From Paecilomyces variotii (Eukaryota): DNA of 64,000 bases. A program made the translations under genes and the position numbers. Positions 17,634 through 56,880 of the stretch are shown piece by piece; position 1 is the stretch's first letter; each line of letters opens with the position of its first letter. A model generated the notes under the pieces. That model saw only the letters and a program-made list of their open reading frames with translations. It searched no databases and was not told where the DNA came from. Location: NCBI GenBank assembly GCA_004022145.1, contig RCNU01000001.1, one strand, 5' to 3'.

Positions 17634-17752
17634 ACATACGACCATAGGGTGTGGAAAATAGGGCTTCCCGTCCGCTCAGCCGTACTTAAGCCACACGCCG
17701 GCAGGTTAGTAGTTGGGTGGGTGACCACCAGCGAATCCCTGCTGTTGTATGT
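17634..17752 (+). rRNA. 5S rRNA gene (dispersed copy)
   Basis: ACATACGACCATAGGGTGTGG...GCTGTTGTATGT, 119 nt with complementary ends, followed directly by a T-run Pol III terminator. Matches the ascomycete 5S pattern. Confidence 0.97.
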
Positions 17753-18775
17753 TTTTTTGCATTTTTTTTTATATTGCCTATTCTCCCTATCTGAGGGATG
17801 TGTAAACATTAGGAAAGGAGAAACTACTTCTTATCGTTTTTTTGTGGAGTGGAATGGCAGTTATTTACAAATAACCGAGGTCCCGGTCGAGCTACATTTC
17901 CCTTTACGGAAAGACTGGGAAATACCTACCTAGTGACTCGCTACAGCTATTTTAAGAATACCAGAAAAGCAGCTTATTAACTAGGAAGTCCACTGAGGTA
18001 AGAGTTAATACCTTACAAGTAATCAGAGTAATGAACAAGTATTTATGTAATTGTTCTTGGCTTTCCTTTCCCTGCCTGATTTTCTCTTAAGGGCCACTCC
18101 TTTGCTTGTATCCTTATAACGTGGCTTATTAGATCCCCTCGACATTTTGGTTCCTTCTTAGAAAGTAAAACTTGAAATGTTTCCCTCCGGTATTAGGCCA
18201 GAATTATATGAGGAAGTTCCCTAGATCAACCAATACGTTATGTGGTTGTCTATGACAAGGATGTTTCACGGCCGCCACCGGTACACACTCCATCATAAAG
18301 TACGCTGATAGAATGAATTTTGAAAGCCCCTAAAGGTTAGAAATTATACATAATGACTCTGAATCATGCTTTCTTAACATGATGTATAGGACCTCATTCA
18401 AGCTAGTTTTTATAAGTCGTTTCTAAATACACAGTTCTTAATTGGTGAGTTTACTTGACAGTTGCGGACCTGTCCCCACCAAGTAGTTAACGGCGACGTT
18501 GTCTAAGCCAACTCTCTTAGAACGTGGAATTAATTTGTTTATGAGCCCATCAGATACATAAGTAAAACTATTGTCGTCAACGACTCTCCGATTTAGGATA
18601 TAATTTTCAGCCGGGCGATTCTTGGATTCGAATACGAGTCGCGTACTCAGGATTTGACATCTCCGAGATCGGACCCGTACTGGTTGCTTAAAGTTCCCCT
18701 CTCGCGATGTATAGTTATCCCCATGCCAAGAGAAGCGACATCTTCCTATATTCTCCCATCTTCATATATATCACA

Positions 18776-19785
18776 ATGTCTAACAATGCAAATGGTAAAT
18801 CTGTCAAGGACCACTGGTCTTCTGAGGTATGGCTAACCGTCCTTTAACATCCGTTGGATTACAACCCCATATCCCTTCCCCGCGTTTATCAACCGCTAGC
18901 TCATGTAAGCAACAGGCATACTCAGCATCAGCATCTTTCGTCCCCAAGTTGACACAGAAGGTTCTGCAATACCTCGATCCCAAACCGTCAGAGAGGGTAC
19001 TCGACATCGGCTGCGGCGATGGGAAGTTCACGGGCAACTTCCTGCCTGCGGTAGCATTCGTGCTTGGAATTGATTCATCTCCTGCGATGATAGAGGCTGC
19101 CAAGAGGGATTATGGTGGGCCCAAGGCTGAATTCAGGGTCGTTGATTGTCGATTCCTCGAGGGGGAGAGCTCTATCGTTGATGGCTCCTGGGATAAGGTG
19201 TATGTGACCATAGACCCCCTGACCATCAGAGTATATATCTATCACGATGTGGTAAGCTAATATGAAATGTTAAGGGTATCAAACGCTGCCCTTCACTGGA
19301 TCCTACGTGATGAGAACACGAGAATATCCACTCTGCGCGGCATACATGCTGCTCTGAAACCGGGCGGCTCTTTCGTCTTTGAAATGGGCGGGCATGGAAA
19401 TGTCGCTGAGGTCGCGACCGCGATACTCTCAGCGCTTGTCCATCGTGGAGTCAGTATAGAAAAAGCACGGGAGTCCAATCCTTGGTTCTTTCCCTCTGAT
19501 ATCTGGATGAAGCAAGCGCTTGAAAGTATCGGGTTTGAAGTCGAGAAAATAGAGCTCGAGTATCGTCCCACCAAGTTAACGACGACAGCAAATGGTAGAC
19601 TGGCAGGATGGGTGAAGTTGATGGGTGCTCAGATGCTGGATGTCCTGCCTGAATCTGAGAGAGATAGTGCCGTGGAGGAAGTTTGTGAGATGCTCCGTAC
19701 AGCTGTCACCAGATCGGAGGATGGGAGTCAATGGCTGGGATATGTCCGACTTCGTGGCATTGCGAAGAAGAATTCATCAGGATAG
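18776..19785 (+). CDS. Class I SAM-dependent methyltransferase (trans-aconitate methyltransferase-like), 3 exons
   Basis: MSNNANGKSVKDHWSSE|AYSASASFVPKL..., VLDIGCGDG, IDSSPAMI, SNAALHWI and LKPGGSFVFEMGG. Two GT-AG introns. Confidence 0.9.
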
Positions 19786-19942
19786 CTACTAGTGATATAT
19801 TCTGACTATTCAATGCATAACTATGGGCACCTGCAAGTTGTTGACTAAACACATGTGACAATGAAGGAAGGCTCCGCTTCCGGCACTTGCCCATTCATCA
19901 ACACAAGGATATATACCACAACAAAGGGTCATTTATCAATCA

Positions 19943-20127
19943 GGGAGTCCAGATGGTGCAGTGGTAGTCCACCTCCATCTAGCTGGAGGCTCCCTGTTCG
20001 AACCTTGGAGGGGGCTCCTTGGATTTTCGAAGAAAAACCCTACCCGCCAAAAGCACGGTGGGGTTTTCGTAACACCCTTCAGCTCTCCTCTGCTAGAGGA
20101 GTGCTGGGGGGTGTGAGCTTTTTTTTT
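19943..20127 (+). ncRNA. Putative RNA polymerase III-transcribed structured ncRNA with tRNA-derived 5' head; identity unknown
   Basis: A box TGGTGCAGTGG (19954-19964) and B box GTTCGAACC (19996-20004). Hairpin CCTCCA/TGGAGG, two long 3' stem-loops with G-U pairs (~20032-20068 and 20072-20114), and a T9 run at 20119-20127. Confidence 0.7.
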
Positions 20128-20477
20128 GTATGGCTTAGTTTTCTTTTTCTTGTATCGTGTCTATTATTTCTCGTGATTGTGATTCTGTAGAGTAATCTAT
20201 GTCACGTTCTATTCTGTATCAAGGGATTAATACATGAAGATCTCAATGGATATAGTATGACACTGGGTATGCCCCCTGGGTATAAAAGATGCTAAGAATC
20301 CACATAAGACAATAGCAATACGAAAATATCGTATAAGAACCGTGACTCTCCAACAGTAGCTACTGTTGGTATATTGTATATGATGAACACACATGATGAA
20401 TTGCAAATCTTGAAAATCTGACTCAAGCTGAGAATAGCAGAGGTTTTCAGATAGGGAATATAAGAGAAACTCGAGAT

Positions 20478-23256
20478 TCAGTCTCTGCTTTCACATCCTT
20501 GCGACTTTATCGTCGATAACTCAAATGGTATATGAGGTTCCTCGTCCGTTTTGACGGTCCTATATTTCTTCTTGATTAAACCAGATAATCGAGCGTTCCA
20601 GAGCTGCTGTAGCTGCTTTGAAGGAGTTGCCGAAAATGCTTCAGAGGACGACCCAGACTGAGAATAAGAATCAACCCGGCATATGTCTACAAATGAAGAA
20701 GACAGATGATTCACATTTATGGCCAATTTCAAGCCTATATCATGAAGGTCCGAACCTTCAGGTATCCTCTCCAGAGGCAGTTTGCTAGTGTGCACACGTC
20801 GAATCTTTGGCCCGGTGCTGGAAGTCCCTATTTGTCCGACCGTGTCTCGATGGCGGATAAAGTATGCTCTGGGGTCGTTAGGGTTTAATGGAGCAGGGTT
20901 GGGAGTTCCCGTCGTAGAAGTACTTGGTGGCATCTCTGCATGAGATTCTGCGACTGGAGCTGCTAAGGCAGCACGCGCAGCAAGATACCTGTTGTGGTGA
21001 GGAGAGCTGGAAGGAGGTTCGTCCTCTCTGGGAGCCGCTGATCCAAGAAAGGCCTTTGTTTGCAGCCGTCGGGACTGGATAGCCGCTCTCTTTCTTCGCT
21101 CAAAATCCAACGCCATCTCCGTCTCAGACGTGTATTCCGAAGCGGAAGACTGATGTAGTCTGGATGACCACTGCTCAAGTACAGGGAACTCCTGACGTCT
21201 GTGGATGATGTCTTCGGACTGCCCAGTATCTTCTACATCCTCCACAAGAGAATGTTCTCTTCCAGAGATCCGAGGAACATCAATATCAATGGAAGTCTGG
21301 GTATGTTTATTCCCCGCATCGTCGGTGAAGTCTCTCAGCGGACTGGCCTGCGGCGGATGCGTTCTCTTTCCAAACCGCTCGGCTGCCCGATCTCTGGTTA
21401 CCTCATCTTGGATTTCCTGGGACGTAGAGTCGGTAGACAAATTCTTAAAAGATGACTGGGTAACTTTCTGGAACCACGTGTCCAGGGCACCGTTCCCATA
21501 GCGTTCCTTAGCAATGTCTCTATCGGATCTCGTGTAAGCTGCGCAGGCTGGGCTACGTTGAGGACGCTGTACAAACAGCGAAGATCGACGTGACCCGGAA
21601 GACGGCAAAGAAGAATCAGAGTTGGACGGACTTGGCAGGGGAGGACTGCCGGAATGGCGGTTATTCATGCTCTCGAGTTCCAGGCTCTCAGGAGTGTTTT
21701 TGGTGCGGCTAGGAGTTAACAATTGGGAAAAATGAGGTCGAACACTGGCTGTAGAACGAGTAGAGGTATTCAGCCTTGCGATAGCCCAGGGGTTCCTAAT
21801 ATCAATGTTCCCGGATCTCATTGGCGTCTCATTGCGCGATGTGCTTCGTTTCTCATTCTCCAGAGTCTGACAGATAGATGACTGCCGCATACCTCCAGGT
21901 ACAAACGAAGTCTGAGAAGCAGCAGGTATATCCTGGCTGTGATAACTCTCTGCACTTTCTGCCTCTGCTGGTGCTCTGATACAACTGTCATTTTGAGAAG
22001 TCTTGCTGGTCTTTGACGCCGGCGCATCTAACTTGCCGCCGTGGTCGACTTCGCCATATACACTCTTGAAAAGACTCTCTGACAGCGATATAAGGGCGGG
22101 GGAGTCAGTGAACAAAACATCATCCTTGGCTGGTTCAATGTTTGCGTCGTAGCTTCCTTTAGGGCAACGAATGTGCAGACACAAAAACGGATCCGAAAGC
22201 GACGCATTATTCCCCCTGATTTTTGCAGCCGAATGGATATAGGTCCTGAAAAGTTTTATAATATCGCGAGACGTGCCCCTTGAAGCAGAGACTGGTCTCC
22301 CATCAACAGAAACGTACTGGCCTCCGCCACTAACTTTGGTGAAATCTCCTGACTGTCAGCGTAGATTGGTGAATATTATAAAGGCTATAGTTACCTGAAT
22401 CAGCTTTAGGAAGAAACGCGGTTAACTCATAATTGGCCACTGTATGATTCTGCTCCAGTTCCTGCTCCATTTCATGTTCTTTGGATTCCTGAGATGGCCA
22501 TGTAATTACCGCACAGTGGCTAGCTGTTTCGAGGCCGGCCACCAGTAGAGCAGCTTCTCGAAGTGTGGTATTTGGTTTCGGAGCGTAGGTCCAATTGTTG
22601 TTTTCATTCTTACTATCTATAACCCTGAATGAAATTCGTTTAGAAGGCTGAGCAATTGCATACGCTTGGAGGAGCTTCTTGATCCTGGTAATCGTTTTCG
22701 ACGCGCTCTTCAATGCTGTCTGTCTGCGAACTGGAATATGTTTCAAGAAGTCTGTCAAACGGACAGTAGTTCCAACCGGATGAGAAGCACGCTGAGAACT
22801 GCAAAACTGTGTCAGTATGTTGTAAAGAGTCTACATCTGCCAGGCTCACCTTGCGAGATCTCCTGTCCTTGAATACTTCAGGGTTGCTCCCACTACCTGC
22901 GACTCAACTCTCGTAGTCACACTAACACCTCCAGACATCTCGCAAGCACTGGCCAGCGCTTCGCCTCTAAAGCCAAGGGAAGTCCCTCCAACATTTCTCA
23001 AGTCGTCTAATGTCTGAATTTTACTTGTGAAACTGCGCTTGCACACGAAACCGTGGTCCTCTGGGGGGATACCATGCCCGTTATCTTTGACCTGGATGAG
23101 ATCAACTGTATTTTGTGAGACCTCGATGGATACAGATGAGGCACCTGCATCTAGGGAGTTGTCTAGCAGCTCTTTGACGACGGAGCACGTATCAGACAAG
23201 ACACTTGTTGAGCCAATTGCCCGCGCCGTCGACTGTGGAAGGGCGGCAATTGGCAT
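20478..23256 (-). CDS. MutL-family mismatch repair protein, Mlh2/PMS1-like (3 exons)
   Basis: GHKL ATPase motifs VVKELLDNSLDAGA, VKDNGHGI, SLGFRGEALAS and HPVGTTV. Transducer-domain YDANIEPAKDDV. Two introns at ~22799-22849 and ~22350-22395. Long disordered C-terminal half. Confidence 0.9.
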
Positions 23257-23542
23257 CTTCAGGATCGATGTAGATGGCCTGGCATGACACTATTATGCTA
23301 GCTCCCATAAGAGGTAAACATTTATGGGACTTGTCAGTAAGCTCACATCAACGTTGATGCCTAGATGCGAGCTAGATGCTGGCTGATATCAAGTGCTCTT
23401 CTTTGACCTTGAGTCCGAGATTCTGCGCCTCGGGATGCGCTTTCGGCCACGCACTTCATCCCGATGGACACGCGTAGTCAGCAGAACCACGCGGAAAGCG
23501 ACGATGTGGACAACCATGATTTCTCGCCATCGATAGAAAACA

Positions 23543-30931: not shown

Positions 30932-33033
30932 ATGAGTTACGCATATATGCATGGGGCCGGCGGCTTGTCGTACAATCGCGAGCCAACCCTCAAAGACGAT
31001 TTTCCAATACTGGCGACATTGGATCGCGTGCGCGATCCCCAGTTATGGATCGGGCTGCGGAATCGTGCTCTTTCATACGTCTATAGAGTTGACGGCGATG
31101 TACGAAGACGCGGGGGGTATACGCATGAAGCATGGAGGATCGCGAAGCAAGCGATTAATCTAAGGAATGGACTAATACTTCTATGGGCGTTCACGCTGTT
31201 ATGGGGAGAGCGGACGATATTTCGGGAAAGTTTGGAGAGTTGCGCCTGGGGAGGATGGGAGAAATGGGTGAGTGGGTTCTCTGTCGATTATTATGGCGCT
31301 GTGTATTTGGGTGGGAAGAAGCTGATTTTAAGGGATGGGGTCTCTAGCCTCAAGACGCCACGCCGCATCATGTCGCTTTCATCGCCGATCCCCAGCTGGT
31401 AGATCCCCATACCTATCCTGGTCGACCGTGGCCACTGTCGACGTTGACGGTGAAATATACCGATCAGTATTTGAGACGAGTATATTGGGCAATGCAGAAG
31501 ACGCTCCTTCCAGACTCTGTGGTTTTCTTGGGGGATCTCTTCGACGGCGGTAGAGAGTGGGCGACGAGGACTAGCTCCAGTCCGGATGAGAGATACAAGG
31601 GCTATGGGGATAAATTTTGGTTGAAGGAGTACGATCGTTTCGGGAGGATTTTCTTTGATCATTTCAATGACGGTGGCTCTCGTACTGTAGCGAACCCCTG
31701 GGGTCGCAAATTGATTGCCAGCATGCCAGGAAATCATGACTTGGGGTTCGGGACAGGTATCCAAGACCCCGTCCGGAAACGGTTTCAGGCATACTTTGGT
31801 GAGGGGAACCGTGTTGACGTGATTGGAAACCATAGCTTTGTTTCTGTCAACACAGTCTCTCTAAGTGCTATGGATCAGCCGGATCCAGAGACCGGCAGTT
31901 CGGGTGCAGGGGCTGGCGATGGTGTCAGTCCCAATTCCTTTATCTGGAGAGATACACAAGATTTCTTGGATAATGTTCAGGAGTACAAAGCCCGCAGAGA
32001 GGCTGATGAGTTGCGTTCGTGGAAGAATCAGCTAGAGGGCGTCCTTTTCACACCAGGAGTACACGATGTCCTCGAGCCTACTGTACACGAGAAGGATCCG
32101 GTCGAAGCACCCGGATTCCCGACTATCCTTTTGACCCACGTTCCTTTATATCGAAGACCAGCTACTCCGTGTGGACCGCTGCGGGAAAGATATCCTCCAG
32201 TCTCGACGGATCCACTTCCCCAGGAAGATGAGGGAAACTCCATCAAGGTCGCAGGAGGCTACCAGTATCAGAACGTCCTCACAGAAACTATCTCGAAAGA
32301 TCTTATCTCCAAGGTTGGTCCTGGAATTGCACATATCTACTCTGGTGATGACCACGACTACTGTGAAATTGCCCACCGCGAGTTCAGCGGCTCCCCGAAG
32401 GAGATCACCGTGAAGAGTCTCTCGTGGGCAATGGGTGTCCGTCGACCGGGATTCCTGATGACGAGCCTCTGGAATCCGGTTGATCCTGACACTGGAAAAC
32501 CGCCTGGCACGGGGTCGTCACAGACAGTGCAGAACCATCTGTGCCTTTTGCCTGATCAACTAGGCATCTTCATCCGCTATGGATGTCTGTTGGCTTTTAC
32601 TCTCATCGTTCTCATTGCGCGTTCTGTTACGGTTTCTTTCTATGCGCCTGCTGCCTCCACTGGACTGGAGCCGAGCCTCCCACTGTCCGAACCTCGACGG
32701 TATGAACAAGCGCCTTCCAAGTACCCATACTCGAGCACTTCCAGCTCTGCCACTTCTTCCCCCGGCTATACTGACGCCCGCCTCTCCAGCCGTGGTAGCG
32801 TGAGCCTCATCCAATATGCCAAGAACGCGCACGATGACGACATCAGCAGCAGCAACGAGCGCTACCGGGCATGGACAGAGAACGGTGATGATGTGCGATG
32901 GAAGAGCAAAGCCTCTACCTTCGCTCGTCAACAGCAGCAGCCGCGGACGATCATTGGGGAATTCATTGCATCTGTTAAATATGTTGCGCGCGTTGTTCTG
33001 GCGTTTTATTTTTATCTGATCTGGACATGGTAA
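30932..33033 (+). CDS. cdc1: Mn-dependent metallophosphoesterase Cdc1/MPPE1 family (GPI remodelling), 2 exons
   Basis: Intron ~31268-31347. Motifs FIADPQLVD, FLGDLFDGG, MPGNHD, LLTHVPL, YQYQN and SGDDHDYC, with terminal TM helices. Confidence 0.9.
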
Positions 33034-53278: not shown

Positions 53279-53366
53279 TGCGCAAGGGGAGAGTCGAACT
53301 CCCGACCTTCTCATAATCGTACCATTTAATACGAGTGAGACATAATAACCACTATACTACTCGCGC
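53279..53366 (-). tRNA. tRNA-Thr(CGT) with 15-nt intron
   Basis: Cloverleaf with acceptor GCGCGAG/CTTGCGC, anticodon arm TCTCA-CT CGT A[ttaaatggtacgatt]A-TGAGA and T arm GGGAG-TTCGACT-CTCCC. A T-run follows downstream on the minus strand. Confidence 0.95.
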
Positions 53367-54607: not shown

Positions 54608-54670
54608 CACAGAGATAAATAGGCTGAGCTAGTTGCTAGAGAATTCAAGCTCAGCCAGCTTCGCTCCAGA
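54608..54670 (+). repeat. 63-bp direct repeat, copy 1
   Basis: CACAGAGATAAATAGGCTGAGCTAGTTGCTAGAGAATTCAAGCTCAGCCAGCTTCGCTCCAGA; 60/63 identical to 56766-56828. Confidence 0.9.
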
Positions 54671-56322: not shown

Positions 56323-56880
56323 GTGACCTTCGAAGCTTGGCTAGATGACAGCTATATCGACTGCAGAGGCCGCATTGTCCTAGACTCCCAAAATCTCAGA
56401 ATCATTCTCGATATCGGAGACCAAGGTCCGGACAAGCCCAGTGCTCAGATAATATTCAGTCTCGAAAACTGCCGGGTCAATATGGGAATTGAGACCCAGG
56501 GCGATCCCCGCTACGGGCAGGTTCAGACTGCTTGCACGCGAAGGCCACGGCTATTTGATAGTTTCGATAAGACAGAGCTCTGGGTTGTTGAGATGCGAGG
56601 TCCTCCACTTCGGACTGGGAAAAGCTGGGAACTCGAAGAAAAGTTCAGACAGCCCTGGGACGAAATATACGAAGCGGCCTTGGATAATGGGGCCCAAATG
56701 GTTATCTGCAAGGCATACAACCCTAGACACGAGTTAAGGCGAGAGGAGATGTCGGAGCCTGCCTACACAGAGATAAATAGGCTGAGCTTGTTGCTAGAGA
56801 ATTCAAGCTCAGCGAGCTTCCCTCCAGAAGAGATCCAGTCTTGGCAAACGAACAAACCAAGACGTGAGAAAGGTTTATGA
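56323..56880 (+). CDS. Hypothetical protein or gene fragment of unknown function
   Basis: 185-codon open frame with protein-like composition but no ATG at the called start. It contains copy 2 of the 63-bp repeat. Confidence 0.35.
   Translation: MTFEAWLDDSYIDCRGRIVLDSQNLRIILDIGDQGPDKPSAQIIFSLENCRVNMGIETQGDPRYGQVQTACTRRPRLFDSFDKTELWVVEMRGPPLRTGKSWELEEKFRQPWDEIYEAALDNGAQMVICKAYNPRHELRREEMSEPAYTEINRLSLLLENSSSASFPPEEIQSWQTNKPRREKGL
56766..56828 (+). repeat. 63-bp direct repeat, copy 2
   Basis: 60/63 identical to 54608-54670. Contains the perfect inverted repeat GCTGAGCTTG/CAAGCTCAGC. Confidence 0.9.

Follow-up and report, generated by a model that had tools for sequence, protein, structure and literature searches.

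What is the compact, GC-rich stretch that lies between two converging protein-coding genes of Paecilomyces variotii and that automatic annotation misses? In the window, the 64,000-nt stretch of DNA analysed here, a methyltransferase gene on the + strand and a MutL-like gene on the - strand converge on a unit at 19943-20127 (+). The original prediction had read this unit, from its letters alone, as an RNA polymerase III (Pol III) gene in which a degenerate tRNA head is fused to two long stem-loops. Its description of the setting is accurate: GC content is 0.54-0.56 in the unit and 0.34-0.46 beside it, and the two neighbours end as follows.

Stop at 19785, + strand: Methyltransf_25 open reading frame, the upstream neighbour
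Stop at 20478, - strand: DNA_mis_repair (mismatch-repair C-terminal domain) open reading frame, MutL-like, the other neighbour

The methyltransferase mRNA ends before the unit is reached. In a contig of the cDNA run X17, a 20-A tail is joined at 19836, 51 nt past the stop codon; this end lies 107 nt before the unit, which is therefore outside that 3'UTR.

The first issue is whether the unit has the parts of a Pol III gene. Type-2 Pol III promoters consist of an A box followed by a B box, about 30-60 nt apart. Both boxes are present as predicted, with a gap of 32 nt instead of the 31 nt first given, and the two boxes in this order followed by a downstream oligo-T run are what defines a type-2 Pol III gene in sequence terms. 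Across the 64 kb of the window the A-gap-B arrangement is unique, and the strict pattern was reached in only 1 of 200 dinucleotide shuffles, which bears out the layout originally proposed. A conserved block with a TATA motif, overlooked in the original prediction, lies immediately upstream. The elements, some of which were recognised by comparison with a copy on a metagenome contig, L001, are these.

19890-19942, + strand: upstream block, -53 to -1 relative to the GGGAG at 19943, conserved between the window and L001
19890-19899, + strand: upstream sub-block CCCATTCATC, identical in the window and L001 copies
19909-19915, + strand: upstream sub-block ATATATA, TATA-like, at -34 to -28, identical in both copies
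19917-19927, + strand: upstream sub-block CACAACAAAGG, identical in the window and L001 copies
19954-19964, + strand: A box TGGTGCAGTGG, in the 5' strand and apex of hairpin 1
19997-20005, + strand: B box GTTCGAACC, inside the invariant core
20119-20127, + strand: T9 run, presumed Pol III terminator

Judging from this layout, Pol III would likely start near 19938-19943, which puts the beginning of the A box 12-17 nt downstream of the start. At the level of sequence, the unit carries all the parts of a Pol III gene with a hybrid promoter, TATA-like element plus A and B boxes. Past the T9 run there is a further T-rich stretch at 20141-20151, and an oligo-T run followed by a second T-rich stretch is also found at the 5S rRNA gene of the window. 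Only 2.2 kb separate this 5S gene (17634-17753, + strand; Rfam, 84.5 bits) from the unit downstream, so that two Pol III-type units stand inside 2.5 kb; it ends in T7 and T9 runs, and no clear TATA was seen at its -30 position.

The RNA of the + strand folds at -89.3 kcal/mol (z -5.1, equalled by none of 200 shuffles) into four consecutive hairpins, the last two of which are the long stem-loops originally described.

19943-19994, + strand: hairpin 1, the 'head', in the minimum-energy fold; -22.1 kcal/mol alone
19997-20033, + strand: hairpin 2, with a UUCGAA/UUCGAA base and a GGAG/CUCC top; -13.7 kcal/mol on the + strand, -9.9 on the - strand
20034-20068, + strand: hairpin 3 (earlier stem-loop 2), an 11-bp stem pairing 20034-20044 with 20058-20068
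20072-20114, + strand: hairpin 4 (earlier stem-loop 3), 19 bp (12 + 7) with a 3-nt loop; -32.9 kcal/mol on the + strand, -26.7 on the - strand

The - strand folds at -77.1 kcal/mol (z -5.0). The earlier argument that wobble pairs, formed on the + strand only, reveal selection on RNA holds in direction: with 5 G-U pairs among 65 and a difference of 12 kcal/mol between strands, the asymmetry is real but modest. The folding advantage of the + strand stems from hairpins 2 and 4.

Does the head descend from a tRNA? Its minimum-energy fold is a single long hairpin without a cloverleaf, and the Rfam tRNA model gave no match at E<=10 in either a 501-nt segment or the 101-nt head. The idea of a degenerate tRNA head thus finds no support. 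The accompanying statement that the unit is not a tRNA is correct: the head is not a working tRNA, and ARAGORN found none at the unit, the only tRNA that it reported in the window being a tRNA-Val(CAC) at 53279-53366 on the - strand. That gene is supported by both ARAGORN and Rfam (54.2 bits) and, at 88 nt, probably bears an intron. Nor does the unit match any RNA family in Rfam, as the original prediction had anticipated. A search of the 64-kb window against Rfam 15 returned nothing over the unit at gathering score, and detected only the 5S gene and the tRNA-Val. At E<=10, the 501-nt segment and the 101-nt head matched no SRP, RNase P/MRP, U6 or Afu_ family; the matches obtained at this threshold (miRNA-hairpin, lncRNA, bacterial sRNA, snoRNA and viral UTR models) were weak and far below cut-offs. 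C/D and H/ACA boxes were sought in the unit by eye, and none were seen. A likeness of the head to the SRP Alu domain or to RNase P/MRP RNA, based on recall of the motifs GGUGCAGUGG and AGUCC, was considered and set aside, as no Rfam model backs either.

The unit turns out to be one of several. X1, a genome-like contig set from the same organism of ~37 million letters, was aligned to 19300-20800 at 80% likeness. From about 150 in the flanks, its summed contig depth climbs to 742 at 19912-19962, 2188 at 19963-20013, 1037 at 20014-20064 and 722 at 20065-20115, that is, about 4.9x, 14.4x, 6.8x and 4.8x the flank depth along the unit, with the proviso that summed contig depth is not true copy number and that, in the core bin 19963-20013, overlap between contigs makes a locus count almost double. 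There are 19 matching contig pieces. Those of the locus itself end at 20002 and begin at 19981, so that its own contigs break inside the unit, as they do at repeats. Among the matches listed, six of eight come from other contigs (7-94 kb) and are 80-95% alike; each of these six covers some portion of 19909-20124 and differs from it by numerous substitutions and short indels. Where a piece extends to the 3' end of the unit, its alignment stops at 20123/20124 (~5 T), beyond which it diverges from the window. Position 19992 is covered by about 20 contig pieces, four of which have C>T. Loose ends in X1 carry different heads with intact A boxes (TGGCGCAGTGG, TGGCATAGTGG and TGGCACAGTGG). A third element type in the same organism has only ~19973-20005 in common with the window; this 33-nt core is preceded there by another A-box-bearing head and followed by another GC-rich sequence. 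Since the core recurs in otherwise unlike units, it acts as a shared module. The unit is a member of a dispersed family, not a single-copy element; contig depth suggests roughly five near-full-length copies and about as many core-only ones in the ~37-Mb genome.

Outside this genome the family is rarely met. Of 241 million metagenome records, only the contig L001 contains the 22-nt core, at a single locus, in keeping with a family that is young and narrowly distributed. A core pattern gave two matches in bacterial and archaeal genomes, both in GC-rich bacterial DNA and with the rest of the unit absent around them, and none in viral contigs. Searches by pattern, blastn and nhmmer found no further copies within the window; an nhmmer match at 32182-32279 (E 0.079), gapped and of low identity, was taken as chance. 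Protein searches with the two spurious open reading frames that cross the unit did not uncover further copies by way of mis-called genes. In the searchable literature, no paper prints any of the 13-19-nt strings of the unit that were sought, and the main text of a study of fungal ncRNA motifs has no passage on such an element (PMC5640933).

Positions 650-914 of L001 are 82% alike to 19890-20148 of the window, and the rest of the contig is unlike it. Neither DNA matches outside the unit nor any open reading frame of 17800-23500 was found on L001, which makes it a copy in a different context. L001 keeps the sub-blocks CCCATTCATC, ATATATA and CACAACAAAGG, an A box (TGGCACAGTGG), the B box and, at the place of the T9 run, a T6 run. 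Between these lies a stretch without a single difference.

19975-20009, + strand: invariant core including the B box, 35 of 35 positions identical between the window and L001

In an ungapped local alignment the 53 nt upstream are identical at 44 of 53 positions (score 56 against a shuffle mean of 13.3, reached by none of 500 shuffles). A gapped global alignment gives 77% for these 53 nt, 89% for hairpin 3 and 80% for hairpin 4. Farther upstream than 53 nt, likeness between the window and L001 is not significant (137 of 500 shuffles); past the T run, homology looked suggestive by eye and was rejected on the same grounds (227 of 500 shuffles). With significance confined to the block and the unit, the shared unit measures about 238 bp, 19890-20127. 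Neither of the two copies is flanked by a target-site duplication: exact 6-7-mers around them are few and away from the unit ends, and the sharing of 7-mers is at shuffle level. No A-rich tail is present in the window copy or in L001, and the copies in the window, in L001 and in X1 end in a plain run of T whose position is fixed.

Has the RNA structure been preserved between these diverged copies? L001 folds into the same four hairpins as the window copy and is less stable (-73.8 kcal/mol, z -2.95). Its hairpin 1 has the same stem with an apical loop 8 nt longer. Hairpin 2 differs by one substitution and two deletions, located at the apical loop with its closing pair and at the internal loop. 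In hairpin 3, L001 has a G-C pair where the window has A-U (20042:20059). At the apex of hairpin 4, two pairs are changed on both sides, from C-G to G-U and from U-A to C-G, the first of which can pair in + strand RNA only; in its middle stem, three pairs are broken in L001, and its arm differs at 8 of 43 positions. Three of the 65 pairs are thus changed on both sides and still pair, whereas six slid-register controls had none. When 16 substitutions were placed at random over the 163 usable columns in 20000 trials, at least three compensatory pairs arose in 0.04% and at most three broken pairs in 0.8%, figures that apply to a comparison of two sequences with a structure taken from one of them. 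The shuffle control supplied with the test gave 60 of 500 and has little power on an alignment of two rows. In hairpin 1, a further two cells read as 'unpaired' because MAFFT misplaced the 8-nt loop insertion. The original claim that the hairpins are kept as RNA structure gains from these compensatory changes, among them the C-G to G-U change.

The sequence layout, the multi-copy state, the conservation pattern and the compensatory changes are direct observations, and several explanations compete for them. We tentatively prefer, at somewhat less than an even chance, a small family of scattered, self-contained Pol III units that would encode a structured RNA of ~180 nt, with 19890-20127 as one copy: promoter parts, terminator and pairing are kept at ~18% divergence, as in a multi-copy gene family. 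The most serious competitor, which we consider rather unlikely, is a canonical tRNA-derived SINE, transcribed from its Pol III internal promoter and copied by a LINE reverse transcriptase, with hairpins that serve retroposition. The unit is indeed short, dispersed, multi-copy and provided with A and B boxes. SINEBase (PMC3531059) defines a SINE as an interspersed, non-tandem repeat of <1 kb, and a ~238-bp unit that recurs on six or more other contigs of the organism, as well as on an unrelated contig from a metagenome, is a short interspersed repeat in this sense. The same source describes a scheme of head, body and tail modules, in line with subfamilies that share the core and have other heads and bodies. 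Aspergillus SINEs are also low-copy, as PMC5063351 reports; the narrow distribution of the exact core is compatible with a SINE, and compensatory change is possible in master lineages under selection. Other features speak against it. SINEBase (PMC3531059) has the head at least 60% identical to tRNA, 5S or 7SL RNA over at least 60 nt, and the head of the unit, without detectable tRNA likeness, matched no tRNA, 5S or SRP covariance model. Copies number about 5-10 by contig estimate, from depth ratios near 5x over the whole unit and near 14x at the core, and not 100 or more. SINEBase further expects (PMC3531059) a simple-repeat 3' tail of variable length and marks of retroposition, and here the T run is plain and fixed in place, neither A-rich nor a variable simple repeat. 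The copies also share the 53 nt that precede the sole plausible start for Pol III, a stretch that is probably untranscribed and that retroposition should not copy. The original prediction held that many dispersed copies with target-site duplications would make the unit a SINE; the copies are dispersed, and the duplications are missing from both copies compared. The shared upstream block, the fixed T run and this lack of duplications fit a gene family better than a canonical SINE. AfuSINE2 of Aspergillus fumigatus, described in PMC5063351, illustrates both sides: like the unit, it is a short repeat present in few scattered copies, and joins A and B boxes to a non-tRNA body; the unit differs from elements of this type in having no target-site duplication and no A-rich or ACT-type tail, in its fixed oligo-T end, in the conserved TATA block inside the repeat and in a head not recognisable as tRNA. 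By eye, without alignment, none of the AfuSINE sequences printed in the available text of PMC5063351 resembles the unit.

Two further explanations concern the fate of the RNA. The unit might be an inert relic, what decay has left of a repeat (a former family of tRNA-like pseudogenes, or mobile DNA of another kind) whose transcription has ceased; the boxes and hairpins would then be leftovers. Copies only 80-95% alike with many indels, and the poorer folding of L001, are what such decay would leave, but the invariant 35-nt core, the A box, TATA and T run intact at 18% divergence, and compensatory changes in excess of disruptive ones are unlike neutral decay and make a relic improbable. Similarly improbable is a special case of the preferred reading, a small-RNA precursor in which the head serves as promoter and handle and hairpins 4 and/or 3 are cut to microRNA-like RNAs. 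The order of parts, a promoter-bearing head, then hairpins, then oligo-T, speaks for it, and hairpin 4, with its 19 bp, 3-nt loop and U tail, resembles a designed shRNA. Models exist: the TMERs of murine gammaherpesvirus 68 are made by Pol III and have a tRNA-like 5' structure with hairpins processed to miRNAs (PMC8223928), and in Neurospora the major milRNAs are Pol III products, milR-4 needing RNase Z (PMC3547838). Like the unit, the TMERs and the milR-4 precursor combine a promoter-bearing 5' module, one or two hairpins and an oligo-T run. Their heads, by contrast, are tRNA or tRNA-like cloverleaves cut by RNase Z, and the lack of a cloverleaf in the unit makes recognition by RNase Z or RNase P doubtful. 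The differences in the arm of hairpin 4 and its broken middle stem in L001 are also unlike a conserved guide, and in-window matches of this arm are at chance level only, among them one of 20 of 24 positions in the MutL-like gene at 20755-20777 (E 1.8). More speculatively, one may imagine a natural 'shRNA-like' Pol III gene family, in which a hybrid promoter, an upstream TATA block combined with A and B boxes inside a non-tRNA hairpin head, drives a four-hairpin RNA whose terminal 19-bp hairpin, ending in a U tail, gives rise to regulatory small RNAs with member-specific arms and targets, an idea that we hold to be just as improbable as the precursor.

Returning to the gene family, we incline, short of conviction, towards a gene that is specific to the lineage, present in several copies and transcribed by Pol III into a stable, structured RNA, over the less probable canonical SINE. 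In such a gene, TFIIIC would bind the internal B and A boxes and TFIIIB/TBP would be placed on the ATATATA at -34 to -28; Pol III would start near 19938-19943 and stop in the T9 run, releasing an RNA of ~180-185 nt with a U tail and four consecutive hairpins. Pol III transcription, its start and end points, the stability of the RNA and any cellular role are inferences here. The family would be dispersed in the manner of the 5S rRNA genes of filamentous fungi, which are likewise single scattered Pol III genes with double T runs; the two differ in the RNA and in the promoter, type-1 in 5S genes and type-2 in the unit, and also in the TATA, given the 5S gene of the window. In Neurospora, 5S genes have a short conserved upstream element of TATA type. 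In yeast, A and B boxes in the 5' leader of RPR1 and snR52 drive non-tRNA Pol III RNAs, which are single-copy and of known families (RNase P RNA and C/D snoRNA, respectively), whereas such motifs and Rfam matches are absent from the unit. The mammalian 4.5SI, BC1 and snaR RNAs are SINE-related small Pol III families, lineage-specific and with few to tens of copies, that have A/B-box promoters and conserved 5' flanks that aid transcription; they are animal families without sequence relation to the unit.

Is the unit present in RNA data? The runs were read as assembled contigs, which carry neither strand nor transcript ends. In X17, a cDNA run of the poly(A) type, contigs are lacking over 19861-20370, a gap from which neither presence nor absence of a small RNA can be read. 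The random-primed runs X15 and X16, from one study, have contigs that extend from the repeat break at 19981 through the T9 run to 20315 and 20571, covering the AT-rich spacer to the 3' end of the MutL-like gene, and RNA-run contigs with other copies are 300-1269 nt long. These contigs may stem from carried-over DNA, from read-through, from longer transcripts or from a 3'UTR of the MutL-like gene that overlaps the unit in antisense.

Beyond tRNA, 5S, U6, SRP and RNase P/MRP RNAs, hardly any Pol III products are known from filamentous fungi. If true, an RNA of this kind, structured, conserved and made by Pol III from several gene copies, would be a new RNA class for filamentous fungi, in a mould used in food fermentation. 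The unit would also supply a naturally occurring Pol III promoter of hybrid type that packs a TATA block and both boxes into about 115 bp, which is of practical interest for the expression of guide RNAs in moulds. Were the unit a SINE instead, its oligo-T end and the promoter flank that travels with it would make it unusual, and it could serve to trace the dynamics of repeats in a genome that has few of them.

Elsewhere in the window, two 63-nt direct repeats (54608-54670 and 56766-56828) are 95% alike and 2158 nt apart. Each contains an internal palindrome, GGCTGAGCT...AGCTCAGCC, and the pair may mark the two ends of a small mobile element or reflect the duplication of a regulatory site.
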